Virus record (IMG/VR): IMGVR_UViG_2645727821_000004
Coordinates: 1 to 14,460 of that record
Origin: a virus
Taxonomy: Duplodnaviria; Heunggongvirae; Uroviricota; Caudoviricetes
Strand: one strand, 5' to 3'
DNA: 14,460 bases
Numbering within the stretch: the first letter of the stretch is position 1; the number at the start of each line of letters is the position of its first letter. Shown one piece after another: positions 265-14,460 of the stretch. The notes under the pieces were generated by a model. It made no database searches and had not been told where the DNA came from. It worked only from the letters and a program-made list of their open reading frames with translations. Position numbers and translations under genes: made by a program.

Positions 265-438
265 TATCGCGCCCTCAACAATGAGTTTTGTGATGCGGTG
301 CCTGGTGCCTCCAGGTGACGTTAACCAGTTAACAATTAACACCGGATACAGAGAATCCACCCATAACACTGTTTTTGGTTTTAACTGTTCCGCGTGCGCT
401 TAGCCGCATTCACCGCATCACAAAATTCACTTTAAAAA

Positions 439-491
439 GGGCGGCAGAGCAGTCACGGAGTAAAACTGATACCGCCAAACGTCACCAGAAA
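439..491 (-). ncRNA. dicF: DicF small RNA (53 nt), Hfq-dependent ftsZ-targeting sRNA of the dicB operon
   Basis: Minus-strand sequence TTTCTGGTGACGTTTGGCGGTATCAGTTTTACTCCGTGACTGCTCTGCCGCCC matches the DicF sequence as I recall it, followed by TTTTT (plus 434-438). No ORF on that strand; dicB follows. Confidence 0.8.
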
Positions 492-1037
492 ATTGATAAC
501 AGAGGGCGTTGCAGCGGGGTTGTCACTTAAGCGTATGGTCAACCTGACAACCCGGTGTTCTCAACGGGGAAGGAATAACCCCGCCATACTTACCGTCGCG
601 CCATTTCGCGGAGTGCCACAACCGGAAGCGCACGGTCGAATTAAATTTAACGACACCGTACAGAGAGACCAATTTCGCCGTGCACTTTCGCGTTATGCCC
701 TGGCTTTTCAGGGATATATCCTTTCAGTAAACTGTCAGTACCGGATTCTTATCCGTGTCCGGCGCACGACCACACGTGACAGCGTGTTGGCCTCCATTTT
801 TAACCCAGAACCTCAATGGAGGATAAAATGCCAAACAAAAAAAGAAATCCGCTTATTGAAAAACAGATTGAATGCCTGGTAAATCAACTCAAGCAATCAG
901 GGTTATTAAAAACTCATTCAGAGTTGAGGCTCACAGAATCAGCATTCGACGATAAATTAAATAATGTCCTTTATAATGGCATTATTGATTTTAATCGTTC
1001 TTTTGGTCGCCGCGGCCCTGCTGGTGTTTCCTTATAA

Positions 1038-1676
1038 TTACCAGTCAATCCAGAGCGGACCGTGTTCAGCGTAAATATAACTGTACACATCCAGATTATA
1101 TTTGTGGTCTGTTAAGAACAGGCCGCAAATACATGCCGAAGCTTCCAGGGCAGCGGCTCTGTTACTGAATAACCATGTAGCAACATTCCAGCGTTTTTCT
1201 GCATCCCAGTCTTTCTCAAGGCCTGATACCATGAAGAAACCGTTAGTGTTGCCATCAAATAATTCTGTTTCCAGATTTTTAAGCAATGCCTGATGGACTC
1301 TTGCCAGGTATTCCGCCGGAATTTCGCCACGAATTCTGATGAGATTGTCATAAACAAACATGTTCCCCGCATATGGCGATTTTTCTTTCTTGTTTTTTAA
1401 ACCAGCATCATGAGCAAACTGTTCAATTTCTTCTTCCGTTGGTTTCGTATTGATGTTTTGCGCTGTCGTTTCTGCAATTTTCTTTGCCACACTCTCTGAG
1501 TCGTGTTTATTTACAGACGCACAGAAATACAATCCGGTAAACGCATCGCGCACATTACGAGCCATATTATCAGTGTCTTTTTTCGTTACCGATTCCAATG
1601 CAAGTTCGTTCAGACGATGACGAAGTGTGTGTGCTGCAATCTCCTGGATTGAAGTAGGTAAATCTTTAAATTCCAT
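1038..1676 (-). CDS. hypothetical protein (212 aa), unknown function, in repressor-controlled leftward operon
   Basis: Track ORF 1038..1688. ATG at 1676-1674 is preferred because GAGG sits 6 nt upstream on the minus strand; the ATG at 1688 has no SD. Soluble protein, no motif I recognise. Confidence 0.55.
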   Translation of the reverse strand: MEFKDLPTSIQEIAAHTLRHRLNELALESVTKKDTDNMARNVRDAFTGLYFCASVNKHDSESVAKKIAETTAQNINTKPTEEEIEQFAHDAGLKNKKEKSPYAGNMFVYDNLIRIRGEIPAEYLARVHQALLKNLETELFDGNTNGFFMVSGLEKDWDAEKRWNVATWLFSNRAAALEASACICGLFLTDHKYNLDVYSYIYAEHGPLWIDW

Positions 1677-1687
1677 CGTCAACCTCA

Positions 1688-1840
1688 TCAGTCAGAGTTT
1701 CTTGCTAACCAGCGATGCGCGCCAGCTTCGGTTTTAAACGTTTTACTTTTGGTATACGTCATCGCGGTGAACGTGCCGTCCTGGTTGGGAAACACGCCGT
1801 ACACCAGAGATTCGTTGTTGCCAAGATCGATAGTATCCAT
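1688..1840 (-). CDS. small protein (50 aa), first gene of leftward operon; YdfA-like by position
   Basis: Track ORF 1688..1921. Internal ATG at 1840-1838 has an AGG-N5 SD and gives MDTIDLGNNESLVYGVFPNQDGTFTAMTYTKSKTFKTEAGAHRWLARNSD, matching the expected ~51-aa YdfA size. The 77-aa start at 1921 also has a GAGG SD and cannot be excluded. Confidence 0.5.
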   Translation of the reverse strand: MDTIDLGNNESLVYGVFPNQDGTFTAMTYTKSKTFKTEAGAHRWLARNSD

Positions 1841-2022
1841 GCTGACCTCATTTCCCCTTAACGCCGGGGTAGCGGAACAAAAACCTGCTGCATAGTTATT
1901 AAAGTTGAACCCTGCCGTCATGTTCTTACGCCTCGGGCTGGCTACTTAACCCCTGACCACTGCCTGGTAACTCGAAGTATTGCCCTGCGTTCTGTGGGGC
2001 GGGGTGGGTTGGCATGAAAGGA

Positions 2023-2063
2023 AGGATACCCATGGGTATTTAAAAAGTAAATACCCATGGGTA
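2023..2063 (-). promoter_or_regulatory. Leftward early promoter candidate (PL/PdicB-like) with two identical 12-bp palindromic operators
   Basis: Perfect palindrome TACCCATGGGTA at 2027-2038 and 2052-2063 (25-bp centre spacing). Minus-strand -35 TTTACT (plus 2046-2051) and -10 TATCCT (plus 2023-2028) with 17-bp spacer; the -10 overlaps operator 1. Confidence 0.5.
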
Positions 2064-2107
2064 ATTTTTTTTGATGTATCTTAACCGGTGACTGATTGTT
2101 TGGTGAG

Positions 2108-2527
2108 TTATGATGCGTTTTGTGCTTTCTTTTTACGGATTTCTTCGTAGATCATATTGTAATACTGTTTTTTCTCTTCAAGAGTTTTTAATAAGTTATC
2201 CGCTTCACTTTCTGGTAGTTCGTCTAAGAGATCTAAAAAAATACGTTGTCGTGGCGTTAGAACCCTTGTTTCATAATTGGAGGCTGTGTTCGTTGATGAT
2301 GAAACGATACCATCCATCCATCCCCGAGGTAACCCAAAGGACTCTTCTATAATCTCCACCATATCATCTGCGATCCGTTTTTTTCCTTTTTTCCCCTCTG
2401 GGTACAACATTCTTGATACATAAGAAGGCTCGCGACCGATCTTTCTGGCCACGTTAACCGCTTTACCATCGCATTTCTCATCACGAATTTTGATGAGTTG
2501 TTGTCGTCTAAATTCATATTTGTCCAT
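2108..2527 (-). CDS. Prophage immunity repressor, HTH, DicA/RacR-like; no S24 peptidase domain
   Basis: Track ORF 2108..2569 (TTG start would read through the operators); ATG at 2527-2525 preferred, 139 aa. HTH-like AVNVARKIGREPSYVSRML. C-terminus with LPESEADNLL resembles recalled DicA (ALPESEQD). Divergent from the cro-like gene across an operator-rich 100-bp region. Confidence 0.7.
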   Translation of the reverse strand: MDKYEFRRQQLIKIRDEKCDGKAVNVARKIGREPSYVSRMLYPEGKKGKKRIADDMVEIIEESFGLPRGWMDGIVSSSTNTASNYETRVLTPRQRIFLDLLDELPESEADNLLKTLEEKKQYYNMIYEEIRKKKAQNAS

Positions 2528-2548
2528 AGGTAAATAATAGATGCGATT

Positions 2549-2603
2549 ACCGCAAGGTAAACAACCCAAGGGTATTGACTTTTGTTTACCCGCAGGTATT
2601 CTT
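2549..2603 (+). promoter_or_regulatory. Rightward early promoter (PR-like) with three operator 12-mers (OR1-3 analogues)
   Basis: TACC-N4-GGTA 12-mers at 2549-2560, 2563-2574 and 2587-2598. -35 TTGACT at 2575-2580, -10 TATTCT at 2597-2602 (16-bp spacer). AAGGAG SD at 2617-2622 precedes the cro-like ATG at 2628. Confidence 0.55.
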
Positions 2604-2627
2604 TGCTGTGTTTACTAAGGAGTAGCT

Positions 2628-2909
2628 ATGGAAGAATTAAGAATATTTCTCAATTCTCTTTCGTCAGATGAACAGCGTATGTTTGCATGTGAGTGTGGTA
2701 CTAGCATCGGTTATCTAAGAAAGGCATTGAGTAAAGGTCAAGTGTTAGGGGCATCGTTATGTGTCCTTATTGAGCGAGCCAGTAATGGTGAAGTTACACG
2801 TCAGCAACTAAGGCCTTTTGATTGGATGAATATTTGGCCTGAGCTGGAAGATACCAAAACGTTAACACAACCACTTTCTAGGAGCTTGATTCATGAAAAT
2901 CAGGCATGA
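2628..2909 (+). CDS. Cro-like HTH regulator (YdaS/DicC-type)
   Basis: 93 aa with strong SD; HTH-like CECGTSIGYLRKALSKG; a ...QLRPFDW motif resembles recalled YdaS. First gene rightward of the operators. Confidence 0.65.
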   Translation: MEELRIFLNSLSSDEQRMFACECGTSIGYLRKALSKGQVLGASLCVLIERASNGEVTRQQLRPFDWMNIWPELEDTKTLTQPLSRSLIHENQA

Positions 2910-3318
2910 ACACATCCGCATGGCGATGAATGCATGGGCGCGTCCTGATGGTGAAAAAGTTCCTGCGGCTGAGATAACCAGGGCGTATTTCGAACTGGGT
3001 ATGACGTTCCCGGAACTGTACGACGACAGCCACCCAGAAGCCCTGGCGCGTAATACCCAGAAAATTTTCCGCTGGGTAGAGAAAGACACCCCTGATGCAG
3101 TTGAAAAAATTCAGGCGTTGTTACCGGCGATCGAAAAGGCAATGCCGCCTCTGCTGGTGGCCAGAATGCGCAGCCACAGTTCAGCTTATTTTCGGGAGCT
3201 GGTGGAGATGCGGGAACGACTGGTGAGAGACGCTGATGATTTTGTCGCGGTGGCAATAGCTGGCTTCAACCAGATCAACCGTGGTGGCCCGGCCGGAAAT
3301 GCTGTGGCTGTGCATTGA
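2893..3318 (+). CDS. YdaT-like protein (CII functional analogue / toxic regulator family)
   Basis: 141 aa; AGGAG SD at 2880-2884. Starts MKIRHEHI and ends ...VH, with KIQALLPAI motif, as in recalled Rac YdaT. Overlaps the cro-like gene by 17 nt. Confidence 0.65.
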   Translation: MKIRHEHIRMAMNAWARPDGEKVPAAEITRAYFELGMTFPELYDDSHPEALARNTQKIFRWVEKDTPDAVEKIQALLPAIEKAMPPLLVARMRSHSSAYFRELVEMRERLVRDADDFVAVAIAGFNQINRGGPAGNAVAVH

Positions 3319-3389
3319 TCGGCAATATTCATACCGGATCTCTTTCGGTAATACGTGATTAAAAAGATTCGGTATCTGAAGAGGTTAGT

Positions 3390-4460
3390 ATGGCTAATGC
3401 CTGGCTCAGATTATGGCATGACATGCCAAATGACCCCAAGTGGCGAACCATTGCCCGGGTGTCAGGTCAGCCAATTGCAACAGTGATGGCTGTGTATATC
3501 CACCTCCTGGTGAGCGCGTCACGAAATGTCACGCGAGGTCACGTTGATGTCACGACCGAGGATTTGGCAAGCGCGCTCGATGTGACAGAAGAGGTGATTG
3601 ATTCAATTTTGCAGGCAATGCAGGGGCGGGTTCTGAAGGGGGATCTTATCACCGGATGGGAAAAACGCCAGGTACTGAAGGAGGATAACGGTAACGTTTC
3701 GCCAACCGCAAAATCCCCGGCAGAGCGCAAGAGAGCGCAGCGGGAGAGGGAAAGGCAGCGGGAGCAAAATGGCGACTGTCACGGCGTGTCACGAAATGTC
3801 ACGCACATGTCACGACGAGTCACGACAGATAAAGATACAGATAAAGATACAGATCAAGAAGATCAAAACACTATGGTTCATGGCGAGAAAAACGCCACGA
3901 ACCTGACAGGGGATGTTCAGACCGTCAATCCTGGTCAGCCGGCAGGCACGACACCGGAAGCCGATTCAGCGTATGCGCTGAAAGCCGATTCGGGCGCTGT
4001 GCAGCAGGCGATGGTCGCCGGACCGGAGAGATCACACCAACCGCAGCAGCCTGAAGCCGATTCCGCCCTTCAGCGGGAAGCCGATCGGGTAGTCCCGGAA
4101 AACACCGGGCAGCCTGTGGGACGAGTGGATTACCCGGACGGGTTCGAACAGGTCTGGCGGGAATATCCGCTGCGTGCCGGGGCAAATCCGAAGAAATCCG
4201 CGTTCAGTGCCTGGAAGGCCAGGTTACGCGAGGGGGTGCCACCGCAGGTCATGCTGGATGGTGTGAGGCGTTACGCGAGGTACCTGGCGGCGACCGGGAA
4301 AGCGGGAACGGAATTTGTTCAGCGGGCGACAACGTTTTTTGGACCTGACCGGAATTTTGAAAACCCCTGGTTGCTCCCGACTGGCGGGACGAACAACCAG
4401 CGTTGTGTGAATCATATTTCCGAACCGGATACCGAAATTCCACCAGGTTTCAGGGGGTGA
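3390..4460 (+). CDS. Replication initiator (lambda O-like / YdaU-like) containing an internal origin
   Basis: 356 aa; GAAGAGG SD. Lies immediately upstream of the DnaC-like gene; iteron arrays and an AT-rich tract inside the coding sequence (next two features) parallel lambda ori within O. Confidence 0.7.
   Translation: MANAWLRLWHDMPNDPKWRTIARVSGQPIATVMAVYIHLLVSASRNVTRGHVDVTTEDLASALDVTEEVIDSILQAMQGRVLKGDLITGWEKRQVLKEDNGNVSPTAKSPAERKRAQRERERQREQNGDCHGVSRNVTHMSRRVTTDKDTDKDTDQEDQNTMVHGEKNATNLTGDVQTVNPGQPAGTTPEADSAYALKADSGAVQQAMVAGPERSHQPQQPEADSALQREADRVVPENTGQPVGRVDYPDGFEQVWREYPLRAGANPKKSAFSAWKARLREGVPPQVMLDGVRRYARYLAATGKAGTEFVQRATTFFGPDRNFENPWLLPTGGTNNQRCVNHISEPDTEIPPGFRG
3518..3554. repeat. 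Iteron array 1: four GTCACG repeats at 10-11 bp periodicity
   Basis: GTCACG at 3518, 3528, 3538 and 3549, read directly from the sequence. Confidence 0.7.
3778..3866. repeat. Iteron array 2 (five GTCACG repeats) plus adjacent AT-rich tandem repeats with two GATC sites; putative replication origin
   Basis: GTCACG at 3778, 3788, 3798, 3809 and 3819. Tandem AGATAAAGATAC at 3827-3838 and 3839-3850. GATC at 3852-3855 and 3861-3864. Confidence 0.65.
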
Positions 4461-4466
4461 AGGATT

Positions 4467-5213
4467 ATGAAAAATATAGCGACAGGAGGCGTTCTTGAAC
4501 GTATCCGCAAGCTGGCACCACAGCATGTAACCGCGCCGTACCGGACGGCAGAAGAGTGGCGTGAGTGGCAACTTGCGGAAGGCCAGAAACGTTGCGAGGA
4601 GATCAACCGTCAGAATCGTCAGTTGCGGGTGGAAAAAATTCTGAATCGCTCCGGTATCCAGCCGTTGCACCGCAAATGTTCGTTTGCGAATTACCGGGTG
4701 CAGAACGACGGCCAGCGATATGCGCTGAGCCAGGCAAAATCCATCGCGGACGTACTGATAACCGGATGCACAAATTTCGTGTTCAGCGGTAAGCCGGGTA
4801 CCGGAAAAAATCACCTGGCAGCCGCCATTGGTAATCATCTTCTGGAGAAAGGTCGCAGCGTGATTGTGGTCACGGTGGCTGATGTGATGCTGGCGCTACA
4901 CGGCAGCTACGACAACAAAAACTCAGGCGAAAAATTTTTGCAGGGTTTGTGTGACGTTGACCTGCTGGTTCTGGATGAGATTGGCATGCAGCGTGATACG
5001 CGCAACGAACAGGTCACACTGAACCAGATCGTCGATCGCAGAACAGCCGCGATGCGCAGTGTCGGGCTGCTGACGAACCTGAACCATACCGCAATGAGCA
5101 CCCTGCTTGGCTGGCGCGTGATGGACCGCATGACCATGAACGGTGGGCGCTGGGTGAATTTTAACTGGGAGAGCTGGCGTCCGAATGTCGGTCAGCCAGG
5201 AATTGAAAAGTAA
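4467..5213 (+). CDS. DnaC-like AAA+ helicase loader (phage replication protein P analogue, YdaV-like)
   Basis: 248 aa. Walker A GKPGTGKNHLA and Walker B LLVLDEIG. Start 7 nt after the initiator stop, with GGTGAAGGA SD. Confidence 0.85.
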   Translation: MKNIATGGVLERIRKLAPQHVTAPYRTAEEWREWQLAEGQKRCEEINRQNRQLRVEKILNRSGIQPLHRKCSFANYRVQNDGQRYALSQAKSIADVLITGCTNFVFSGKPGTGKNHLAAAIGNHLLEKGRSVIVVTVADVMLALHGSYDNKNSGEKFLQGLCDVDLLVLDEIGMQRDTRNEQVTLNQIVDRRTAAMRSVGLLTNLNHTAMSTLLGWRVMDRMTMNGGRWVNFNWESWRPNVGQPGIEK

Positions 5214-5237
5214 TTTTTATCGGGGAGAAAAAATTTA

Positions 5238-6008
5238 ATGGAAACCGTTTTAGACGCACTGAAAGCGATGGGAAAAGCCACGTCGGTAGAACTGGCTACG
5301 CGACTTGATATCAGTCGTGAAGAAGTGCTGAACGAGCTGTGGGAACTGAAAAAGGCTGGCTTCGTTGATAAAAGCGTATACACCTGGCGTGTGGCTGGCG
5401 AAGGTGAATCCGGGGTAGCCGAAGAGCAGCCAGCACAATCTGAAGCACAGGATGTGCTAACCAGGGAGGTCGAACGAAAAGTTACCGCTGACATGATGAT
5501 TGAGTTTATCAGTCAGGAGGGGGCTAAAACGTGTGAGGAGCTGGCGGGTAAGTTCGGTGTCAGTACTCGCAAGGTTGCTTCCACGCTGGCGGTAGTAACC
5601 GCAACGGGGCGGCTGGCACGCGTTAATCAGAACGGTAAATTTCGTTACTGCATACCGGGCGATAATTTACCAGCAGAGCCGAAAGCTGCATCGGTAACAG
5701 AAGCTGATGGTAAATCCTTTCCTCTGCCATCAGGTGTTGCGTTACCAGTACAGGAGGCTGCAACACAGGAAGATATTAAAACAGAAACGGCGGCGGACAT
5801 TGTGCAGTCGCTACCACCGTTTACCGAAACGCAAGCGGATGACCTGGTTTTATCATCGCTGCATATGGCAAACCGCGAGCTGCGTCGGGCGAAAAGTTAT
5901 GTCCAGAAGTGGGAGCGTGTCTGCGCCGCGCTGCGGGAGCTGAACAAGCACCGGGATATTGTTCGACTGATTGTCGATTCCTCCAGTCGTATTGTGTCGG
6001 AAAAGTGA
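5238..6008 (+). CDS. hypothetical protein with two winged-helix-like modules and an acidic linker
   Basis: 256 aa; GGGAGA SD. wHTH-like segments [28 protein letters not shown] and [29 protein letters not shown]. Confidence 0.55.
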
Positions 6009-6022
6009 TTGCCGGAGGCGCT

Positions 6023-6445
6023 ATGGCAAAAGTATTTACACAGGAAGAGCGGGAAGATGTGAAGGCTCGCATTGTGGAACTGGTACGCAGGGATGGGCGG
6101 AAAACGCGTAAACAACTGGAAAATGAAACCGGGGCGACGAGACATCTGATAGAAGTTCTGACGAAAGAGCTGGTAGCCAGTGGTGTTGTATATGGCTCAG
6201 GGTATGGAATATTTCCTTCAGAGCAGGCACGTAAGGACTGGATGAAAGCCATTGAAAAGATGTCGAAAGCAAAGTCAAAGAAACTGGCTGTGGTTGATCC
6301 TTACCTTATCTGGTCATTACCAGACGGAGAAATACGTCGTTACGACAGGCGCCTGAACATGATTTGTCACGATTGCCGGAAGAGCGAAGCTATGCAGCGT
6401 GTACTGGCTTTCTATCAGGGTAATTTTCAGGAGGCGATACTGTGA
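6023..6445 (+). CDS. hypothetical winged-helix-like protein (141 aa)
   Basis: ATG at 6023 with GGAGG SD at 6014-6018, inside track ORF 5909..6445 whose GTG start overlaps the upstream gene. Confidence 0.5.
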   Translation: MAKVFTQEEREDVKARIVELVRRDGRKTRKQLENETGATRHLIEVLTKELVASGVVYGSGYGIFPSEQARKDWMKAIEKMSKAKSKKLAVVDPYLIWSLPDGEIRRYDRRLNMICHDCRKSEAMQRVLAFYQGNFQEAIL

Positions 6446-6502
6446 GTGAAATTAGCTATCAGGCTTCAATTACCGCTGGCATTCGCATCAAAGGAGAGGA
6501 GC

Positions 6503-6859
6503 ATGGAAATAAAACCAGAAGATGAGTTAAGCAATATCGTTTTATTTCCGATAAAAGAGGATGACCCTCGTAATCAGGTTAATTTTCTTTATGAGCCATC
6601 GGAAAGACCATATTGCCATCACACTTCTGTCCGGGTTGACGAAAAAGAGCGTCAGGTCCGCTGTAAAATCTGCGGTGCAGTTGTGGAACCATTTGACTGG
6701 ATGCTCTCTGTGGCGAAAAGAGAAACCAGGATGGCAGATGATGTAAAACAATTGCGCCAGGAGGAACGGGAAAGGCGAAAAAATATAGAAAAGCTAATTC
6801 AGATTGAGCGCAACGTGAAAGCGCGGATACGCAGGGCGACAAAAGCCCGAACTGAATAA
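6503..6859 (+). CDS. hypothetical zinc-ribbon protein (118 aa)
   Basis: ATG at 6503 with AAAGGAGAGGAG SD, inside track ORF 6446..6859. Candidate zinc ribbon CHH ... CKICG; basic coiled C-terminus. Confidence 0.5.
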   Translation: MEIKPEDELSNIVLFPIKEDDPRNQVNFLYEPSERPYCHHTSVRVDEKERQVRCKICGAVVEPFDWMLSVAKRETRMADDVKQLRQEERERRKNIEKLIQIERNVKARIRRATKARTE

Positions 6860-6955
6860 TTAAATTTGGCACAGAACATAAAATTAATCCTTAACCGGAG
6901 GGATTTATGCACCCTCAGAACATCAGGAGGCCACCCGAAAAGGCGGTAGTGAAAA

Positions 6956-7363
6956 ATGGCTGAATTAACCAAAGAGCAATTAATCGAAGAAGTTAAATTA
7001 AAAATAGCGATTGCGAAATGCCATCCCAATTCAGGCGTGGCACGAGTAGAGGGTGAGTTATTCAAAATTGCAGTGACATCGCTGGAAGCAGAACCGATAG
7101 CGTGGGAATGCGGTGAAAACATAATCCTGTTTAATCCTGACACAGTTGAAGCATACGCAAAACGTGCGGAGATATCACCTAAACCACTATTCGCCGCCCC
7201 ACCTGTGCTGGTAGTGCCTGAAGGGCTTGTTAAAGCGGTACGCTTTTATGAACAGGTAAAGTGTGAGAATCCGCCAGCCGAAACCGGAGCATGGAAAGAC
7301 GCTGTTGACTGGGTACTCGAAGAAGCTTGCCAGGCTGTAAACATTGGCATCAAAGGAGGGTGA
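6956..7363 (+). CDS. hypothetical phage protein (135 aa), DUF550-like N-terminal module
   Basis: N-terminus LTKEQLIEEVKLKIAIAK ... VTSLEAE is paralogous to the N-terminus of the 7656..8471 product. Confidence 0.5.
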   Translation: MAELTKEQLIEEVKLKIAIAKCHPNSGVARVEGELFKIAVTSLEAEPIAWECGENIILFNPDTVEAYAKRAEISPKPLFAAPPVLVVPEGLVKAVRFYEQVKCENPPAETGAWKDAVDWVLEEACQAVNIGIKGG

Positions 7364-7364
7364 T

Positions 7365-7652
7365 ATGGCAACTTTGCAGGAATTAATCGACCTGACGCCA
7401 GAACAGGAAAAAGCGTGGAATCGCCTTGTGAAGGCTGTAAAGGATTTCAGGGCAGCCGGAGGAAAGTTTTATAGCGTCCTGGACACGCTGAGCGCATACA
7501 ACGGCGAGCACGTTGCCAGCATTGATAACGATAAGGGCTACCACACTGCAAGCGTCTATATGCCTAGCATTGATGCGCCAGGGCTAACCAGTTGGGCTGA
7601 TGATTGGCACGGCATCACGCTGAAAGATGGCGTTGAAGTGGATGAGGACTAA
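7365..7652 (+). CDS. hypothetical protein (95 aa)
   Basis: ATG at 7365 with AAAGGAGGG SD at 7352-7360, inside track ORF 7344..7652 (TTG start). Confidence 0.5.
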   Translation: MATLQELIDLTPEQEKAWNRLVKAVKDFRAAGGKFYSVLDTLSAYNGEHVASIDNDKGYHTASVYMPSIDAPGLTSWADDWHGITLKDGVEVDED

Positions 7653-7655
7653 CAC

Positions 7656-8471
7656 ATGACTACTTTTACCGACAAAGAACTGATTAAAGAAATCAAAGAG
7701 CGCATAGGCAGCCTGGACGTTCGAGACAATATTGAGCGCCGGTCGTATGAAATTGCACTGGCATCGCTGGAACGCGAACAGATTCGCCACGAGCATGCCA
7801 AATGGTCTGACTCCACATTTGGCTGCGTTGGCCCCATTGGTCCACTGAAACACCTCTCAAAAGAGGCACTGGAAGCCGCAGCCGAACCAGACGATCTTAG
7901 CGAGTGGGCTGATATGCAGTTTCTGTTGTGGGATGCACAGCGCCGTGCTGGCATCAGCGATGCTGAAATTAACGTTGCTATGGAAGATAAATTGAAGATC
8001 AACATGGAGCGCCAGTGGCCTGAGCCAAAAGATGGTGAGCCTCGCTTGCACATTAAAGAACCCGGCAACTCTCCGGTAATTCCGGATGGTTTATCCACGG
8101 TATGCGCTGAGGCTTATCAGGTTGTAGGAGTTATGGCAGATGCGCTTGGTGTATTCGGTGATGCAGCAGTACAGAAAGTTCTGGATAACCTGTCACAGCA
8201 AAAACTTGTTCACAGAGATGTGCTGCCGTTCTCGCTTCCGGTAACTCCGGATGGTTGGATAAGCTGTAGTGATCGAATGCCTGAAAAGGGCCAGAACGTG
8301 CTTATTTCGGTGAATTTCGATAGCTCTCTGGTTGAACCGCTAATATGCTCCGCACGCTATACCGGAAGCACCTTTCGGCGCGGAGATGCAACGATTAAGC
8401 CGGGTAATGGTATTGAGCAAGCAACTCACTGGATGCCGCTACCGGAACCGCCGCAGGAGGTGAATCAATGA
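7656..8471 (+). CDS. phage protein with DUF550-like N-terminus and DUF551-like C-terminus
   Basis: 271 aa. C-terminal PDGWISCSDRMPEKGQNVLISV ... THWMPLPEPP is typical of DUF551 as I recall it. Confidence 0.6.
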   Translation: MTTFTDKELIKEIKERIGSLDVRDNIERRSYEIALASLEREQIRHEHAKWSDSTFGCVGPIGPLKHLSKEALEAAAEPDDLSEWADMQFLLWDAQRRAGISDAEINVAMEDKLKINMERQWPEPKDGEPRLHIKEPGNSPVIPDGLSTVCAEAYQVVGVMADALGVFGDAAVQKVLDNLSQQKLVHRDVLPFSLPVTPDGWISCSDRMPEKGQNVLISVNFDSSLVEPLICSARYTGSTFRRGDATIKPGNGIEQATHWMPLPEPPQEVNQ

Positions 8472-8551
8472 GCTGGCCTGAAGCGTTCACAACGGTAGGA
8501 ATTGCAATGGCGGTGGCGCTGGTGGTGTATTCTATTTGCCGCTGGGGGTAA
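8468..8551 (+). CDS. small hydrophobic peptide (27 aa, MSWPEAFTTVGIAMAVALVVYSICRWG)
   Basis: ATG overlaps the upstream stop (ATGA at 8468-8471); AGGAGG SD at 8455-8460. One predicted transmembrane helix. Below the track size cut-off. Confidence 0.4.
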   Translation: MSWPEAFTTVGIAMAVALVVYSICRWG

Positions 8552-8711
8552 GGTATTGAAAAACGCCCACACACATAAGTTGGGCACCTGAGTTGCGGGG
8601 ATAGGGAGTTAGTTAAATAGTTATACAACAATACCTGATTTTGTATTGAAGCAAGGAAGAGGTTGCCACATATTGAATCATGCACGTGTACGTCAAATGC
8701 GGGAGGTCATC

Positions 8712-8801
8712 GTGCTGGTTCTGAAATGTGCGCTGGCTATTGCGGCTGTAATGGCAATTTATTGTCTTGTTATTGTTCTTATGGATCACCTTTCTGATTG
8801 A
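8712..8801 (+). CDS. small hydrophobic peptide (29 aa, GTG start, MLVLKCALAIAAVMAIYCLVIVLMDHLSD)
   Basis: GGGAGG at 8701-8706, 5 nt before GTG at 8712; stop TGA at 8799-8801. Possible promoter TTGAAG-N17-CATATT upstream (~8648-8676). Confidence 0.3.
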   Translation: MLVLKCALAIAAVMAIYCLVIVLMDHLSD

Positions 8802-8955
8802 TTTTATATTGGCGAGGTGACGAGAGTTAAGTAGAATTGCTGCGGGTGCTTGAGGCTATCTGCCTCGGGCATGAACAGCAACGGCAGATAGATAAAAGCC
8901 CCAGTTAACATTACGCGTCCTGCAAGACGCTTAACATTAATCTGAGGCCCAATCT

Positions 8956-9153
8956 ATGCTTCACAAACGTAGGTTAGCCTCTTACGAGCCGAAAGGCAAG
9001 GAGAAGCAGGCTATGAAGCAGCAAAAGGCGATGTTAATCGCCCTGATCGTCATCTGTTTAACCGTCATAGTGACGGCACTGGTAACGAGGAAAGACCTCT
9101 GCGAGGTACGAATCCGAACCGGCCAGACGGAGGTCGCTGTCTTCACAGCTTAA
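8956..9153 (+). CDS. mok-like reading frame (in-frame N-terminal extension of hok)
   Basis: ATG at 8956 in frame with hok, as in recalled chromosomal mokC/hokC. 65-aa track ORF. Confidence 0.4.
   Translation: MLHKRRLASYEPKGKEKQAMKQQKAMLIALIVICLTVIVTALVTRKDLCEVRIRTGQTEVAVFTA
9013..9153 (+). CDS. hok: Hok/Gef-family type I toxin (HokD/RelF-like), apparently truncated by a premature stop (46 aa)
   Basis: MKQQKAMLIALIVICLTVIVTALVTRKDLCEVRIRTGQTEVAVFTA matches recalled HokD up to a TAA at 9151-9153. In-frame continuation GAA CCT GAG GAG TAA encodes EPEE-stop, the canonical Hok C-terminus. Confidence 0.8.
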   Translation: MKQQKAMLIALIVICLTVIVTALVTRKDLCEVRIRTGQTEVAVFTA

Positions 9154-9239
9154 GAACCTGAGGAGTAAGAGACCAGGCGGGGGAGAAATCCCTCGCCACC
9201 TCTGATGTGTCAGGCATCCTCAATGCACCCACACTTAAC

Positions 9240-9256
9240 CCGCTTCGGCGTTTTTT
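9240..9256 (+). terminator. putative intrinsic terminator at 3' end of hok transcript
   Basis: CGC-TTCG-GCG short stem with UUCG tetraloop, then T6 (9251-9256). Stem is short. Confidence 0.4.
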
Positions 9257-9311
9257 CGTTGATTAACTCTAGTTATCAGAGAACCGAACTTTTACTGATG
9301 GGGGCAGGGAG

Positions 9312-9704
9312 ATGAAGAAACTTGTTTTAGTTGCAGGTGTAATGATTGCAACAGTAATGTTGGGAGGGTGTGCAGCAAAGGTCGATCCTGCGTTGAAAGC
9401 AGAAGCAATGAAGCCACTAACATGTAAAGATGAAAAGCAATGTGACTTTTATTGGAAACGCGCGCAATTCTGGTTGGCTAATAATTCCGCATGGAAAATT
9501 CAAACGGCGACAGACACGCTAATTTCCACTTATAACCCCTCACCAAATAGTCCACTCCTCGCTTATCAAGTGAGTAAAATGCCAAATGAAGATGGATCCT
9601 CAAGAATTTTCATCCAGCCTTTTTGCGATAATATGTTTGGCTGTCAACCAAACCTCTATCAGGCGGTTGTTTCCTTCAAAAACTTCGTTAGAACTGGGCA
9701 GTAG
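9312..9704 (+). CDS. prophage lipoprotein (130 aa), function unknown
   Basis: Signal peptide MKKLVLVAGVMIATVMLGGC with lipobox LGGC; GGGAG SD. Confidence 0.65.
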   Translation: MKKLVLVAGVMIATVMLGGCAAKVDPALKAEAMKPLTCKDEKQCDFYWKRAQFWLANNSAWKIQTATDTLISTYNPSPNSPLLAYQVSKMPNEDGSSRIFIQPFCDNMFGCQPNLYQAVVSFKNFVRTGQ

Positions 9705-9896
9705 TGTATAGCGGGGACGGTAAATTATTAGTGAAAACGCCGTGAACCCTCACCCAATGTGAGCTAACCCCATCAAACATGACTGTGATGATTAGCATAC
9801 CCGCTTCAGCGAGTTTTGTTTTTTCCGGGAATTCTGGTTTACAATCTGCACGCCAGCCTGAACAACTGGCACCTGCTGCGCCAGCAGAGAAAACAA

Positions 9897-10169
9897 ATGG
9901 CGCACAATACCAAAAATCACAATTCTGATGCCGTTCGTGCCAGCAGGCATGGGCGGCGTTCGCGCGTATTTAAAACCGACTGGTACCAACACCCTCCATG
10001 CACTGAAGAACAGGCCGAATGGCTGATTCAGTGTTACCGCAGACACGGATACGAGATTAAGAAAGCCCTCAGCCTCGATTATCGTCACTGGATAATCTCC
10101 GTCAGGCTTCCTTACTCCGAACGCCCACCGCGTCCGTCCCGCACATTCCAGCAACGGATCTGGAGGTAA
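9897..10169 (+). CDS. small basic protein (90 aa), Rem-like by position
   Basis: ATG at 9897 inside track ORF 9816..10169. Sits immediately upstream of the YdfU-like gene as rem does in Qin. Candidate promoter TTGTTT-N18-TACAAT at 9816-9845. Confidence 0.45.
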   Translation: MAHNTKNHNSDAVRASRHGRRSRVFKTDWYQHPPCTEEQAEWLIQCYRRHGYEIKKALSLDYRHWIISVRLPYSERPPRPSRTFQQRIWR

Positions 10170-10170
10170 C

Positions 10171-11217
10171 GTGCGGGTATTACTTCGACCTGTTCTGATA
10201 CCGGAACTCGGGCTGGTGGTCCTTAAGCCCGGTCGTGAATCCATGCCGGTATTTCACAATCCTCGAGTGCTGGTGGAGCCGGAACCGAAAAGTATGTGCG
10301 GCCTGCCATCCGGAGTCGTCCCTGCCGTTCGCCAGCCGCTGGCGGAGGATAAATCATTACTGCCATTTTTCAGCGATGATCGGGTGATTCGTGCTGTTGG
10401 CGGCGCTGGGGCACTGTCTGACTGGCTGTTGCGTCATGTCAAATCCTGCCAGTGGCCTCATGGTGACTATCATCACAGTGAAATCGTCATACATCGTTAC
10501 GGTACCGGCGCGATGGTGTTGTGCTGGCACTGCGACAACCAGCTGCGTGACCAGACATCCGAATCACTCGAGCAACTTGCTCATCAAAACCTGTCAGCAT
10601 GGATGATTGACGTCATCGGTCACGCAATAAGCGGTACGCAGGAGCGTGAATTATCTCTGGCTGAATTATCCTGGTGGGCGGTCCGCAATCAGGTGGCGGA
10701 CGCGCTACCGGAAGCGGTATTACGTCGTTCGCTGGGGTTGCGTGCGGAAAAAATCCGCTCAATGTACCGTGAAAGCGACATCGTACCGGGAGAGCAGACC
10801 GCCACCAGCATACTGAAGCAGCGCACAAAAAATCTTGCGCCGCTGCCTCACGCCCACCAGCAAAACCCGCCACAGGAAGAGGCGGTGGTCAGCATTGCCG
10901 TTGATCCGGAGTCTCCGGAATCTTTCATGAGACGACCTAAACGTCGCCGTTGGGTAAAGGAGAAATATACGCGCTGGGTGAAGACACAGCCGTGTGCGTG
11001 TTGTGGTCAACCAGCCGACGATCCCCATCACCTGATTGGTCACGGTCAGGGAGGGATGGGAACAAAGGCCCACGATATTTTCACGCTACCGTTGTGCCGG
11101 GAACATCACAACGAACTTCATGCGGATCCGCTGGCGTTCGAAGAAAAGCATGGCTCTCAGGTTGATTTAATTTTTCGTTTTCTTGATCACGCCTTTGCAA
11201 CCGGCGTGCTTGGGTAA
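10171..11217 (+). CDS. YdfU-like DUF968 protein (348 aa) with HNH-like C-terminal Cys/His cluster
   Basis: GTG start 1 nt after the upstream stop; GGAGG 5 nt upstream. C-terminal CACCGQPADDPHHLIGHGQGG ... CREHHNELH. Length matches recalled YdfU (~349 aa). Confidence 0.7.
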   Translation: MRVLLRPVLIPELGLVVLKPGRESMPVFHNPRVLVEPEPKSMCGLPSGVVPAVRQPLAEDKSLLPFFSDDRVIRAVGGAGALSDWLLRHVKSCQWPHGDYHHSEIVIHRYGTGAMVLCWHCDNQLRDQTSESLEQLAHQNLSAWMIDVIGHAISGTQERELSLAELSWWAVRNQVADALPEAVLRRSLGLRAEKIRSMYRESDIVPGEQTATSILKQRTKNLAPLPHAHQQNPPQEEAVVSIAVDPESPESFMRRPKRRRWVKEKYTRWVKTQPCACCGQPADDPHHLIGHGQGGMGTKAHDIFTLPLCREHHNELHADPLAFEEKHGSQVDLIFRFLDHAFATGVLG

Positions 11218-11229
11218 AAGAGGTTACTG

Positions 11230-11592
11230 ATGCGTATAGAGCTTGTTTTGCCTTACCCGCCAACGGTGAACACCTACTGGCGACGTCGTGGCAGCACATA
11301 TTTTGTATCAAAAGCCGGTGAGCGTTATCGCCGGGATGTGGCGCTTATTGTTCGTCAGCAGCGACTGAAATTAAATCTGTCCGGTAGGCTGGCAATCCGA
11401 ATTATTGCAGAGCCACCGGATAAACGCCGCCGTGACCTGGACAATATCCTGAAAGCACCACTGGATGCGCTGATGCATGCCGGACTTCTCATAGACGACG
11501 AGCAGTTTGATGAAATTAATATAGTGCGCGGTCAGCCTGTTCCTGGTGGGCGGCTGGGCGTGAAGATTTACGAAATAATGCATGACGGGTAG
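11230..11592 (+). CDS. rusA: RusA Holliday-junction resolvase
   Basis: 120 aa. PYPPTVNTYWRRR ... DKRRRDLDNILKAPLDAL ... GGRLGVKIYEI aligns to the RusA family including the catalytic acidic cluster. AAGAGG SD. Confidence 0.85.
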   Translation: MRIELVLPYPPTVNTYWRRRGSTYFVSKAGERYRRDVALIVRQQRLKLNLSGRLAIRIIAEPPDKRRRDLDNILKAPLDALMHAGLLIDDEQFDEINIVRGQPVPGGRLGVKIYEIMHDG

Positions 11593-11600
11593 GTCCAAAA

Positions 11601-12422
11601 ATGAAACTGGAAGATTTACCGAAATACTATTCCCCAAAATCGCCAGGTCTGACTGATGCATCCGTCTCGACGTCAAAAGATGTGCTGAGCATCACTGATG
11701 TGATGGCTGCGCAGGGTATGACACAAAACCGGGCTGAGATGGGATTTTCTGCGTTCCTGGGGAAAATGGGCATCAGTATGAATGACAGGGCGCGGGCAAC
11801 AGAATTACTGGCAGATTATGCACTCAGTCGGTGCGATCGCGTGGCGGCGTTGAGAAAACTTCCGGCAGAAATAAAACCGGCAGTGATGCGTATTATGGCT
11901 TCGTACGCTTTTGAGGATTATGCCCGCAGTGCAGCGAGTAAAAAACAGTGCCCTTGTTGCGGTGGGAAAAAATTTATTGAAAGCGTAGTTTTTACAAACA
12001 AGGTCCAGTATCCGGATGGCAAGCCGCCAGTATGGGCAAAGTGTACAAAAGGCGTGTATCCGTCTTACTGGGAGGAATGGAAAAAAGTCCGGGAGGTGGT
12101 GAAAGTCTCCTGTCCAGAATGCAAAGGGAAAGGGGAGGTTTCTACGGCCTGTAAAGATTGCCGTGGACGTGGTGTTGCCATTCATCGTGAAGAGTCGGAA
12201 AAACGGGGTATGCCTGTTATCAGAGACTGCCAGCGTTGTGGTGGTCGTGGCTATGAAAGATTACCGTCGACGGAGGCATTTAATGCCATATGTGAGGTAA
12301 CAAAGCAGATAACACGCGCGTCATGGGAAAAAACTGTTAAGCAATTCTATGACACGCTGGTGATTAAGTTTGATATTGAGGAAGCATGGGCAGAGCGGCA
12401 GTTAAAAAAGGTAACCAGATAA
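11601..12422 (+). CDS. putative late-gene antiterminator Q (QuuQ/phage-82-like), with four CxxCxGxG zinc-finger-like motifs
   Basis: 273 aa. Position between rusA and a promoter/terminator pair is the Q slot. Motifs CPCCGGKK, CPECKGKG, CKDCRGRG, CQRCGGRG. Call is by position and zinc-binding character. Confidence 0.55.
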   Translation: MKLEDLPKYYSPKSPGLTDASVSTSKDVLSITDVMAAQGMTQNRAEMGFSAFLGKMGISMNDRARATELLADYALSRCDRVAALRKLPAEIKPAVMRIMASYAFEDYARSAASKKQCPCCGGKKFIESVVFTNKVQYPDGKPPVWAKCTKGVYPSYWEEWKKVREVVKVSCPECKGKGEVSTACKDCRGRGVAIHREESEKRGMPVIRDCQRCGGRGYERLPSTEAFNAICEVTKQITRASWEKTVKQFYDTLVIKFDIEEAWAERQLKKVTR

Positions 12423-12427
12423 CAATG

Positions 12428-12456
12428 TTGATTTTTCCGGAATCTGTGGTAAATTT
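12428..12456 (+). promoter_or_regulatory. candidate late promoter (PR'-like) just downstream of Q
   Basis: TTGATT at 12428-12433 with TAAATT/AAATTT 16-17 bp downstream; 6 nt after the Q stop. Confidence 0.35.
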
Positions 12457-12502
12457 ATCCTAACGATGGGCGTTTTATGCCTGACGTTAAAAGATTTTTT
12501 AC

Positions 12503-12526
12503 AACCCGCCGCCGTGCGGGTTTTTT
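12503..12526 (+). terminator. intrinsic terminator (tR'-like)
   Basis: Stem AACCCGC/GCGGGTT (12503-12509 / 12516-12522), loop CGCCGT, followed by a T-run. Confidence 0.65.
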
Positions 12527-12630
12527 GTTGGTTTAACAGGTTATAATGTATAGTGCGAAACTGCCTGTTCAGCAGAATCATTTTGTTTGTAGTAGAGTTC
12601 ACAAGTCGTCATTATCAGGCAAAGAGATTT

Positions 12631-13032
12631 ATGGTATTAAAGTATCAGCCGTCTGTTCGTTCTGTTTTAATGTGTGATTTTCGGGGAATGGTTGTTCCGG
12701 AAATAGTCAAGGCCAGGCCAGTGGTAGTAGTATCCAGAAACAGACACAACAATCAATTGGTAACAGTGGTACCAATAAGCACTACTGAACCGATCCCTCG
12801 CAGAGATTGCCATCATGAGTTATCAGAAAACCCCATTCCTGGTAATGAGCATATTACTTGCTGGGTAAAATGTGACATGTTGATGACGGTTTCATTGAGC
12901 CGACTGGATCGCATAAAAACCAGAAACTGGGAGGGGCGAAATTATATTGTTCCTATGATTGCGGAAGATGAGTTTGAGAATATTAAACGGGCGGTATTGC
13001 ACGGGATAGGGATGGCTTATCTGTATCGATAA
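12631..13032 (+). CDS. MazF/PemK-fold toxin-like protein (133 aa) with no adjacent antitoxin ORF
   Basis: By-eye parallel to MazF: CDFRG ... E..KARPVVVVSRNRHNNQLVTVVPISTT vs MazF VDFDP ... RPAVVLSPFMYNNKTGMCLCVPCTT; C-terminal ...IKRAVLHGIG vs ...KINVLIG. Perfect TATAAT at 12542-12547 upstream. Confidence 0.6.
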   Translation: MVLKYQPSVRSVLMCDFRGMVVPEIVKARPVVVVSRNRHNNQLVTVVPISTTEPIPRRDCHHELSENPIPGNEHITCWVKCDMLMTVSLSRLDRIKTRNWEGRNYIVPMIAEDEFENIKRAVLHGIGMAYLYR

Positions 13033-13067
13033 TCGAAAACGATTATCGAATTCGATATAAATTTATA

Positions 13068-13096
13068 TTGACACACATAGTGTGTTGACTGATACT
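13068..13096 (+). promoter_or_regulatory. strong sigma70-like promoter candidate with embedded inverted repeat
   Basis: TTGACA at 13068-13073, 17-bp spacer, GATACT at 13091-13096. Spacer holds ACACA-TAG-TGTGT and a second TTGAC. Confidence 0.5.
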
Positions 13097-13185
13097 GTCG
13101 CTGTACCCTGATGGGACTTGTGAGACTTCCGAACAGGAAGCCAGGAGTAGCGATAAGGTGATGACAAGCCTGCTGCCCCTGTGTA

Positions 13186-13217
13186 AAAGGCATCTTAATG
13201 GTGCCTTTGTCATTTTT
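13186..13217 (+). terminator. terminator-like hairpin 1
   Basis: Stem AAAGGCA/TGCCTTT (13186-13192 / 13202-13208), 9-nt loop, T5 at 13213-13217. Confidence 0.45.
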
Positions 13218-13228
13218 ATCAAAAGTTC

Positions 13229-13251
13229 CCCGCCATTGAGCGGGTTTTTTT
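13229..13251 (+). terminator. intrinsic terminator 2
   Basis: Stem CCCGC/GCGGG (13229-13233 / 13240-13244), loop CATTGA, T7 at 13245-13251. Confidence 0.65.
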
Positions 13252-13374
13252 ATGCCTGAAAAACGACACAGGACGTTAAACGCGCTGGTGGTTGCGAATA
13301 TCAGTTTTTCAGCTTGCTGGCTTTTCAGACAAGAGTTATTGGTATGTCACGTTAACCAGAAAAGGGAAAAAGAC

Positions 13375-13572
13375 ATGCTAAAACAGCAGGATATGACCGA
13401 AACCGCCAGAGTGGTGTTTAATGAATTAAGCGTCACCGAACCGACGACCGTCGGGGAGATTGCGCAGAATACTTACCTTTCACGCGAATGCTGCCAGTTA
13501 ATACTGACCCAGCTTGTTATGGCGGGCCTGGCAGATTATCAGTTTGGTTGTTACAGACGCCTTCCGCAGTGA
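13375..13572 (+). CDS. small winged-helix DNA-binding protein (65 aa), PapI/FaeA-like
   Basis: ATG at 13375 with AAGGGAAA SD, inside track ORF 13252..13572. ARVVFNELSVTEPTTVGEIAQNTYLSRECCQLILTQLVMAGLADYQ aligns by eye to PapI; the similarity is modest. Confidence 0.45.
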   Translation: MLKQQDMTETARVVFNELSVTEPTTVGEIAQNTYLSRECCQLILTQLVMAGLADYQFGCYRRLPQ

Positions 13573-13581
13573 AGGCTTTTT
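13559..13581 (+). terminator. intrinsic terminator overlapping the wHTH gene stop codon
   Basis: Stem GCCTTC/GAAGGC (13559-13564 / 13571-13576), loop CGCAGT, T5 at 13577-13581. Confidence 0.65.
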
Positions 13582-13722
13582 AATTTGTGGTAATGGGCGG
13601 CTGGTGGGTGTTAGCGGCACCTGCCAGCCATCTGCTCATGCGTTGGGGTCACAAGCAAACCTCAGGCCCATCTGCTTTGCGCAAAAGCGGTATGAGCCTA
13701 TCAGAGAAGCGCTTATTGATCT

Positions 13723-14460
13723 ATGGCTAATACTGTAAAAATATCCAGTTGTGAGTTAATCAACGCTGATTGCCTGGAATTTATCCAGACCTTACCGGAA
13801 AACTCTGTCGATCTGATAGTCACAGACCCGCCATACTTTAAAGTGAAACCCAACGGCTGGGACAATCAGTGGAAAGGGGACGAAGATTACCTTAAGTGGC
13901 TGGACCACTGTCTGGCCCAGTTCTGGCGGGCGTTAAAACCTGCCGGAAGCCTTTACCTGTTCTGTGGGCATCGCCTGGCATCTGATATTGAGATCATGAT
14001 GCGTGAACGTTTCAACGTGCTTAACCATATCATCTGGGCGAAGCCGTCCGGACGTTGGAATGGGTGTAATAAAGAAAGTCTGCGCGCATATTTTCCTGCC
14101 ACAGAGCGCGTTCTGTTTGCTGAACATTACCAGGGGCCATATCGCGGCAAAAGTGACGGCTATGCGGCAAAAGAAAGGGAACTCAAACAGCACATAATGG
14201 CACCGCTGATTTCGTATTTCAGGGATGCTCGTGCCGAACTGGGTATAACGGCAAAACAAATTGCCGAAGCCACAGGTAAGAAAAATATGGTTTCCCACTG
14301 GTTTGGTGCCAGTCAGTGGCAGTTGCCGAATGAGGCTGACTATCGGAAGTTACAGGCACTGTTTTCCCGTATAGCGGCAGAGAAGTTTCAGGAACAACAA
14401 CTGGAACAACCACACCACCAGCTGGTGGCATCTTATGATTCACTGAATCGCAAATATTCT
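13723..14460 (+). CDS. DNA methyltransferase, N6-adenine/N4-cytosine beta class (DPPY motif), 5' part; runs off the window end
   Basis: Open frame from ATG 13723 to window end (246 codons). LPENSVDLIVTDPPY ... AGSLYLFCG ... HIIWAKP follows the CcrM/M.HinfI-type motif order. Not in the track because it has no stop in the window. Confidence 0.8.
   Translation, partial: MANTVKISSCELINADCLEFIQTLPENSVDLIVTDPPYFKVKPNGWDNQWKGDEDYLKWLDHCLAQFWRALKPAGSLYLFCGHRLASDIEIMMRERFNVLNHIIWAKPSGRWNGCNKESLRAYFPATERVLFAEHYQGPYRGKSDGYAAKERELKQHIMAPLISYFRDARAELGITAKQIAEATGKKNMVSHWFGASQWQLPNEADYRKLQALFSRIAAEKFQEQQLEQPHHQLVASYDSLNRKYS

Follow-up and report, generated by a model that had tools for sequence, protein, structure and literature searches.

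The window analysed here is a 14,460-nucleotide (nt) stretch of a Caudoviricetes virus (IMG/VR record IMGVR_UViG_2645727821_000004, positions 1 to 14,460), and its right end carries a small winged-helix gene, a conserved structured leader and the first part of a DNA methyltransferase (methylase) gene. We think it likely that this region is the promoter-proximal end of a Q-dependent late operon in which the leader gates translation of a toxic anti-restriction enzyme. In the mechanism we propose, the phage would hypermethylate its own DNA against restriction with an orthologue of M.EcoGII, an enzyme that would be toxic if made in the lysogen. Transcription from the late promoter pR' would, along a route that the evidence shows in part and suggests for the rest, read through a duplicated terminator tR' and a hairpin, P0; because that readthrough should need Q, the methylase would be transcribed only in lytic growth. 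The multi-helix leader would then most likely gate translation from a methylase start codon that has no Shine-Dalgarno sequence, a task that in phage Mu falls to Com, acting on mom.

M.EcoGII is widely used for chromatin and RNA mapping and labelling. How this toxic, non-specific methylase is silenced and switched on is left unexplained in the papers that describe it. The value of the locus lies in an apparently undescribed and widespread leader that stands before interchangeable DNA-modification genes, and in a family of winged-helix proteins, as yet uncharacterised, that is linked to one of them.

The methyltransferase and its late-operon setting

The methylase fragment matches the Pfam N6_N4_Mtase family (E 1.7e-16) and the PHROG DNA methyltransferases (E 3e-103), and 208 of its 245 compared residues (85%) are identical, with no gaps, to the M.EcoGII sequence given in Supplementary Table S1 of PMC11551740. 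Motif IV lies near the N-terminus as TDPPYF (residues 34–39; DPPY is residues 35–38, positions 13825–13836). The C-terminal FxGxG region, which binds SAM, falls beyond the window, and in an orthologous locus of 92% identity (L001) it reads DFFMGSGST, at residues 308–316. M.EcoGII is a characterised non-specific adenine methyltransferase of an Escherichia coli O104:H4 prophage, which is unexpressed in the lysogen, harmful on over-expression and proposed to protect phage DNA from restriction; a homologue from phage 1720a-02 is named in the same family (PMC5778455), and phage 1720a-02 is among the DNA matches of the window. Judged from its sequence, the window enzyme is an orthologue of M.EcoGII, an anti-restriction enzyme of a known kind, and the 85% identity suggests that it too methylates adenine without sequence specificity.

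The original prediction, made from the letters of the window without database searches, had seen in this protein a helix-turn-helix (HTH)-like insertion, ITAKQIAEATGKKNMVSHWF. The HTH-like stretch is real, occupying residues 175–194 (positions 14245–14304) with a weak Pfam HTH_3 match at residues 167–193, but it is not an insertion. The target-recognition domain of M.EcoGII is predicted to be a four-helix bundle with an HTH at residues 160–237 (PMC11551740), and the segment ITAKQIA-ATGKKNMV-HWF, within domain limits taken from the same paper, is conserved between the two enzymes; because the stretch sits within the target-recognition domain of the family, it is a standard part of the enzyme. 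The description of the methylase as an orphan proved correct, since orthologous loci have transfer RNA (tRNA), stx or lysis genes 3' of it and never a restriction gene.

The order Q, terminator, winged-helix gene, methylase, then tRNA, stx or lysis genes is common to SfV, phiP27, Stx2 phages and many E. coli prophages, and the loci that keep the order from Q to methylase have at least four different Q types. That the same order recurs across these Q types places the gene pair at the head of a Q-antiterminated late operon and makes the upstream terminator tR'. The succession that marks a lambdoid late operon, a Q gene, then an intrinsic terminator, then late genes, is present, the late genes being assigned through synteny in relatives. 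The window's Q protein belongs to the PHROG group 'anti-termination protein Q-like' and is 91% identical to quuQ of Stx2_EH1910. A promoter-like site within the 3' end of its gene is probably the pR' of the pR'-tR' unit, to judge by its position relative to Q and to a terminator ~125 nt downstream. Between positions 11500 and 14460 there are seven terminator-like sites, against 2.6 ± 1.4 in shuffles. In phiKO2, the hairpin 5' of the leader is the annotated late terminator and follows the annotated late promoter; in both phiKO2 and PY54 the leader begins directly after the annotated terminator.

The leader and the genes that follow it

The spacer between the winged-helix and methylase genes is better conserved than the winged-helix coding sequence, and its length varies from 147 to 154 nt by single-base indels. 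Such indels across relatives exclude a coding role; the two open reading frames (ORFs) that overlap it, at 13514–13738 and 13587–13730, were considered and set aside, their frames being broken in relatives. RNAalifold and manual inspection give the order of the leader as a P1 junction holding P2 and P3, then P4, an invariant GAGCCUAUCA box, P5 and the start codon (Table 1).

A covariance model, R1, was built from 13 enterobacterial sequences and finds the leader 5' of divergent methylase genes in Providencia and Hafnia phages, in PY54, phiKO2 and YDC107_1 (N15-like), in Vibrio ST2-1pr and VHML, and in Aeromonas phiARM81ld. When it was applied to matches to a loose two-anchor sequence pattern, 80 from viruses and 80 from metagenomes, 71 of the viral matches passed against 6 of the metagenome ones; the other 74 metagenome matches are due to chance and serve as a negative control. 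Over 44 distinct sequences, paired cells reach 89.4%, against 33–46% with slid partners, and 30 of 37 leader pairs change on both sides, values attained by none of 500 shuffles, in an alignment that was fitted to the model and to that extent favours structure. A separate RNAalifold run on the same alignment still finds P1, P2 and P4, and 18 of the 23 pairs that it predicts are compensated. At one leader position the pair seen most often is G-U, and at another U-G alternates with U-A; G-U pairs are frequent, which assigns the structure to the + strand RNA.

These pairs also bear on the view that the spacer is conserved as a DNA element, a set of operators or a promoter, and not as an RNA structure. 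Its hairpins are palindromes in DNA, and in many loci P4 comes close to a perfect palindrome of 16 bp, but the change from U-G to U-A keeps pairing in the RNA where the other strand would have a C-A mismatch, and the nested multi-helix architecture survives complete turnover of the P2 sequence in PY54, phiKO2 and VHML. With G-U pairs as frequent as they are, we regard a DNA element as very improbable.

The leader matches nothing in Rfam 15 within 13573–13722, even at E ≤ 10, and at the gathering threshold no family matches it, whether in the window or where the motif occurs in 10 divergent loci; ARAGORN reports no tRNA-like RNA in the spacer. In the literature we found no description of the leader RNA motif, nor of the function of gp51 of phiKO2 or ORF59 of PY54, the winged-helix homologues of these phages. 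Of 58 distinct loci, 51 have a GC-rich hairpin or terminator immediately 5' of the leader, and some of these are without a winged-helix gene. One locus (L041, ~2888–3000) has lost ~40 nt of the spacer, and there the model score falls to 60.6 bits.

The leader is not tied to one kind of gene. The next ORF after it in the 71 viral loci is an M.EcoGII-type methylase in 62, some of which have a Com-like ORF ahead of it, a Mom homologue in five (PF25680, E 7e-71; L157, L185, L194, L195 and L133), a C5-cytosine methylase in three (PF00145; L145, L118 and L158) and a holin in one. The Mom, C5-methylase and holin loci share a stretch, UGUAUA(U/A)AUGACCA, with an in-frame upstream AUG. Vibrio and Aeromonas phages have Com-like zinc-ribbon ORFs (PF10122) between the leader and the M.EcoGII-type methylase, the one in phiARM81ld matching with E 1.6e-6. 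Loci with such ORFs include L115 (1358-), L130, L140 and L109 (1329–1544), and some of them also have an upstream winged-helix homologue. About 300 nt 5' of the leader in one C5-methylase locus (L145, 2084–2162) is a match to the isrJ family of small RNAs (sRNAs; 69.7 bits), which may represent the short pR' transcript made by that phage.

By manual count, the start codon of whichever gene follows comes 23–37 nt after the GAGCCUAUCA box, mostly 29, and usually has no Shine-Dalgarno sequence; the methylase ATG of the window, read from the sequence, also has none. That the spacing stays nearly fixed before unrelated genes speaks for an action of the leader on translation, and not solely on transcription or on how stable the RNA is. 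Directly 5' of the methylase ATG (13718–13722) there is a GATC, a Dam site, which is near-invariant in enterobacterial loci (TGATCYATG) and absent in PY54, Hafnia and N15-like phages.

It is possible, and we put it forward tentatively, that the ~140-nt leader represents an undescribed class of cis-regulatory structured RNA that gates translation of toxic anti-restriction genes and has been swapped among three enzyme families, with or without Com. As modelled, such a class would combine a three-way junction with two more hairpins and with junction nucleotides that do not vary, and would range over lambdoid, N15-like, Vibrio and Aeromonas phages. The leader may sense a ligand, or a protein made by the phage or the host, and the linked winged-helix protein is one candidate. 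If this is true, a leader common to M.EcoGII-type, Mom and C5-methylase genes would point to a shared post-transcriptional safety device for phage anti-restriction enzymes, and would add a new RNA family.

The winged-helix gene and its neighbourhood

The winged-helix ORF is a real gene under purifying selection, with a median ratio of nonsynonymous to synonymous substitution rates (dN/dS) of 0.20 over 110 pairs and a Shine-Dalgarno sequence, AAGGG, at 13362–13366. The AlphaFold2 model of the 65-residue protein (whose predicted local distance difference test score, pLDDT, averages 90) has the topology H1-b-H2-H3-wing of a winged helix. It matches PHROG 331 (E 8e-36), which carries no assigned function, and its family is a narrow one, in which a search of 1.84 billion representatives gives just 85 clusters at E ≤ 1e-3. 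The top Foldseek matches are winged helices of IclR, OhrR, Rrf2, SelB and an O-methyltransferase. Membership of the TrmB family (PF01978), the name that PGAP gives to homologues, was rejected, the score being 13.1 bits (E 0.088) where the cut-off is 25.6, and the Pfam scores for DUF7342, DprA_WH and Rrf2 are as weak. The protein has no Pfam match to Mu Com (PF10122). A restriction-modification (R-M) controller protein was likewise discarded, the fold being a winged helix and not Xre, with no restriction gene in any orthologous locus.

The original prediction had assigned the protein to the PapI/FaeA family and had rightly seen in it a winged helix and placed its ORF between two terminators, the hairpins at 13229–13244 and 13559–13576, which are followed by T7 and T5. 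The family assignment did not hold. Pfam gives no match to FaeA (PF04703) even at E ≤ 1; BLASTP against PapI, whose query sequence was checked against PDB 2HTJ, gives a non-significant E of 0.19 over seven residues; HHalign gives a probability of 0.87%; and PapI lies outside the Foldseek top 50. The one PapI-like trait of the protein is the generic winged-helix fold of its AlphaFold2 model. That fold and the adjacency of the two genes are all that favours a heritable, phase-variable epigenetic switch built from a PapI/FaeA-like protein and a site-specific orphan methylase, which had also been suggested. The enzyme belongs to a non-specific family that is silent in lysogens (PMC5778455), and since M.EcoGII methylates adenine in any context there would be no motif to cluster in promoters; the locus, moreover, has the context of a Q-controlled late operon and not of a fimbrial or other phase-variable promoter. 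We give such a switch hardly any credence. A PapI/Dam-style epigenetic switch is a tempting mis-annotation of this gene pair, which is now corrected.

The linkage of the winged-helix gene to the methylase is close. It lies ~150 nt 5' of an M.EcoGII-type gene at 28 of 28 loci anchored on it, and viral contigs anchored on the methylase agree, the same ~150-nt arrangement being present in each of the 77 that extend far enough upstream. Distant homologues in Providencia phage PSTRCR_117lys, Hafnia phage yong2, phiKO2 (gp51), PY54 (ORF59) and Vibrio phage ST2-1pr adjoin methylase homologues of 52–64% identity. In the leader-anchored sample, the gene is present in 37 of 59 N6-methylase loci, absent from the other 22, and found in none of nine loci where the leader precedes another gene (Fisher p = 4e-4, uncorrected for phylogeny). 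The idea that an anti-restriction methylase has a small gene linked to it is upheld, but the "dedicated regulator" that had been read into it is at best optional, given the 22 loci that lack the gene.

A dedicated regulator would bind the leader RNA or DNA and repress or activate the methylase, in the manner of Aca, an R-M controller or Com. The strict adjacency and spacing would fit it, as would the recurrence of the methylase type beside the phiKO2, PY54 and Vibrio ST2-1pr homologues and the absence of the gene from Mom and C5-methylase modules. There is precedent in the small HTH Aca proteins, which bind structured 5' untranslated region (UTR) RNA of anti-defence operons (PMC13551039), and the RNA-binding winged helices of SelB are among the fold matches. 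Apart from its absence from more than a third of the leader-plus-methylase loci, what speaks against such a role is the leader itself. No alignment column discriminates leaders with the gene from those without it, and identity is 91.7% between the groups against 91.7–92.3% within them; since the two are indistinguishable, conservation of the leader is independent of the winged-helix protein. The leader is also conserved across clades in which the recognition helix has completely diverged, and Vibrio phages carry both a winged-helix protein and a Com-like ORF, so that the former is not a Com substitute. On balance we find a dedicated regulator unlikely.

The slot between tR' and the leader behaves like a hot spot for cargo, holding unrelated ORFs of ~220–230 residues (L121, L138 and L137), an ORF of 134 residues (L153 and L183) or nothing (L127 and L190). 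That these alternatives occur where the winged-helix gene is missing, that a PemK cassette has been inserted at the same place in the window, and that a promoter-like element and a terminator come with the gene would suit the gene being unrelated cargo, an alternative moron that acts on host or other phage genes. Its tie to a single enzyme type holds in phages from Escherichia to Vibrio and in both lambdoid and N15-like architectures, which exceeds what random cargo would lead one to expect and leaves this explanation doubtful, if a serious contender.

In an alignment of 24 loci the promoter-like element shows up as two conserved blocks a fixed distance apart, CTTGCTG and, after a spacer of fixed length and variable sequence, AGAGTTAY, then GTATGTCA. 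It also precedes the Providencia, Hafnia, phiKO2, PY54 and Vibrio homologues, and occurs only with the winged-helix gene (22 of 37 loci by a strict pattern, against 0 of 30 without the gene). These features suggest promoter function, and a sigma-70 consensus scan does not call the element. By eye, it was rejected as an RNA hairpin, the pairings being inconsistent between clades, and as a sigma-54, sigma-32 or sigma-E promoter, the spacings being unfit. Hairpin P0, over the stop codon of the gene, is maintained via compensatory changes. With promoter-like element, Shine-Dalgarno sequence and P0, the gene resembles an autonomous, moron-like unit whose parts come and go together. Its product is most likely a small DNA-binding regulator, which probably controls its own expression and is inherited along with the methylase type but dispensable for it. 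Decayed copies, frameshifted or truncated, are found in L024 (4001–4069), L021 (~3995–4171) and L131, and in N15-like linear-plasmid phages the homologue lies 5' of the annotated late promoter and terminator (phiKO2, L113 1003–1362; PY54, L110 992–1500).

Several points weigh against a Q-dependent late operon with a leader-gated toxic enzyme. The late promoter pR' is predicted at the level of consensus, as is the promoter-like element 5' of the winged-helix gene, and the latter has no canonical -10 T. The window end cuts the methylase at residue 246 of ~348, leaving the C-terminal third outside. Helices P3 and P5 are less consistent across clades than the rest of the leader, and the evidence for a translational role of the leader is its position and the start-codon spacing. 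The VHML start has a normal Shine-Dalgarno sequence, and in one locus (L155) the leader stands 42 nt before a holin gene. Finally, the association of the winged-helix gene with N6-methylases only could reflect a direct functional link to which we have given too little weight.

The duplication of tR' is bound up with the PemK cassette. SfV and Stx2_EH1910 have one terminator directly 5' of the winged-helix gene, which aligns to both copies in the window, and copy 2 is the start of the DNA block common to SfV, phiP27 and Stx2 phages. The cassette carries a solitary PemK/MazF-like toxin gene (12631–13032; Pfam PemK_toxin, E 9e-14) without a visible antitoxin ORF, a strong promoter-like site (13068–13096; TTGACA-17-GATACT, 10/12 consensus) and a terminator-like hairpin (13186–13208), and is rare: 20 of 5426 E. 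coli genomes have it, and all 80 viral contigs lack it. The winged-helix protein was ruled out as the PemK antitoxin, because the cassette is a rare insertion and SfV, phiP27, Stx2 phages and the 80 viral contigs keep the winged-helix gene without it. PADLOC returns no match for the winged-helix or the PemK protein. The promoter-like site of the cassette has two terminators ~90–150 nt downstream, and the predicted transcript of the 13068–13251 region has an unusually stable fold (z = -3.4, 0 of 200 shuffles); it could be the short pR'-type RNA of a second late-control unit, or a PemK-linked sRNA.

The window as a whole is the early-to-late region of a lambdoid prophage, with DicF, YdaS/YdaT, a DnaC-like loader, DUF1627, hok/sok, DUF968, RusA and the antiterminator Q. 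Its DNA is ~90–92% identical to E. coli prophages. M.EcoGII is a common gene of prophages, and 3475 of 5426 complete E. coli genomes have matches to the region studied here. Two RNAs exceed their Rfam gathering thresholds, the DicF sRNA at 439–490 (- strand) and the hok/sok antitoxin RNA at 8844–9018 (+ strand), and the YdaS/YdaT-like genes lie at 2628–3318.

Table 1. Features at the window's right end, in window coordinates.
Feature	Position	Strand	Basis or detail
Late-gene antiterminator Q, QuuQ type, 273 residues	11601..12422	+	Pfam Antiterm PF03589, E 5e-52
Candidate late promoter pR', within Q 3' end	12349..12377	+	ATGACA-17-GATATT; consensus scan 9/12
Late terminator tR', copy 1	12503..12530	+	7-bp GC-rich stem, then T run
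Inserted PemK cassette between tR' copies	12527..13228	+	flanked by duplicated terminator
Late terminator tR', copy 2	13229..13251	+	CCCGCC-loop-GCGGG hairpin 13229-13244, then T7
Conserved promoter-like element of winged-helix gene	13313..13350	+	CTTGCTG, spacer of 17 nt with variable sequence, TATTGG, then GTATGTCAC
Small winged-helix protein gene, 65 residues, PHROG 331	13375..13572	+	ATG 13375 to stop 13572
Hairpin P0, weak intrinsic terminator over winged-helix stop codon	13559..13581	+	GCCTTC-loop-GAAGGC (13559-13576), then T5
Conserved structured leader RNA, ends at methylase ATG	13585..13725	+	RNAalifold, covariance model, covariation counts
Leader helix P1 (UGGGC/GCCCA)	13594-13598/13666-13670	+	closes junction holding P2 and P3
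Leader hairpin P2, long	13599-13629	+	
Leader helix P3	13631-13636/13654-13659	+	
Leader hairpin P4	13672-13690	+	
Leader helix P5	13692-13697/13711-13716	+	
M.EcoGII-type beta-class N6-adenine DNA methyltransferase	13723..14460	+	ATG 13723, open to window end

Relation to known systems

The closest known relatives of the enzyme are the prophage methyltransferases M.EcoGII and M.EcoGI of E. coli O104:H4 C227-11, with which it shares the N-terminal DPPY, probably the beta-class motif order, the HTH target-recognition domain, carriage on a prophage and orphan status; the M.EcoGII papers cited here make no mention of an upstream winged-helix gene or a leader RNA. With PapI and FaeA the winged-helix protein has in common that it is a small winged-helix protein of ~70 residues, but the locus has no pap-type GATC/Lrp context and its partner methylase is of a non-specific type and not Dam.

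The control that we propose resembles that of com-mom in phage Mu, where a toxic late DNA-modification gene is gated at translation (PMC3299994). In both, a late, toxic anti-restriction DNA-modification gene would be under layered control. The window, however, has no Com, its winged-helix protein is not a zinc ribbon, and its RNA is a multi-helix structure of ~140 nt where Mu has a single Com-binding hairpin; the leader model finds no match in the Mu com-mom region or in the P2-like phiO18P, even with filters off. Aca1 and Aca2 (PMC13551039) offer a second parallel, in that a mobile element there likewise combines an anti-defence gene, a structured 5' UTR and a small protein of the HTH type. 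Compared from sequence alone, the proteins are unrelated, and the window protein is optional, its presence leaving the RNA unchanged.

The winged-helix unit would have the promoter-gene-terminator anatomy of morons, its promoter being predicted. The region as a whole follows the lambdoid Q-pR'-tR' plan of a Q gene, a short promoter-to-terminator unit and accessory genes before tRNA, stx or lysis genes, and departs from it in two respects: tR' is duplicated around the PemK cassette, and an extra conserved RNA element stands between the moron-like unit and the first late ORF.

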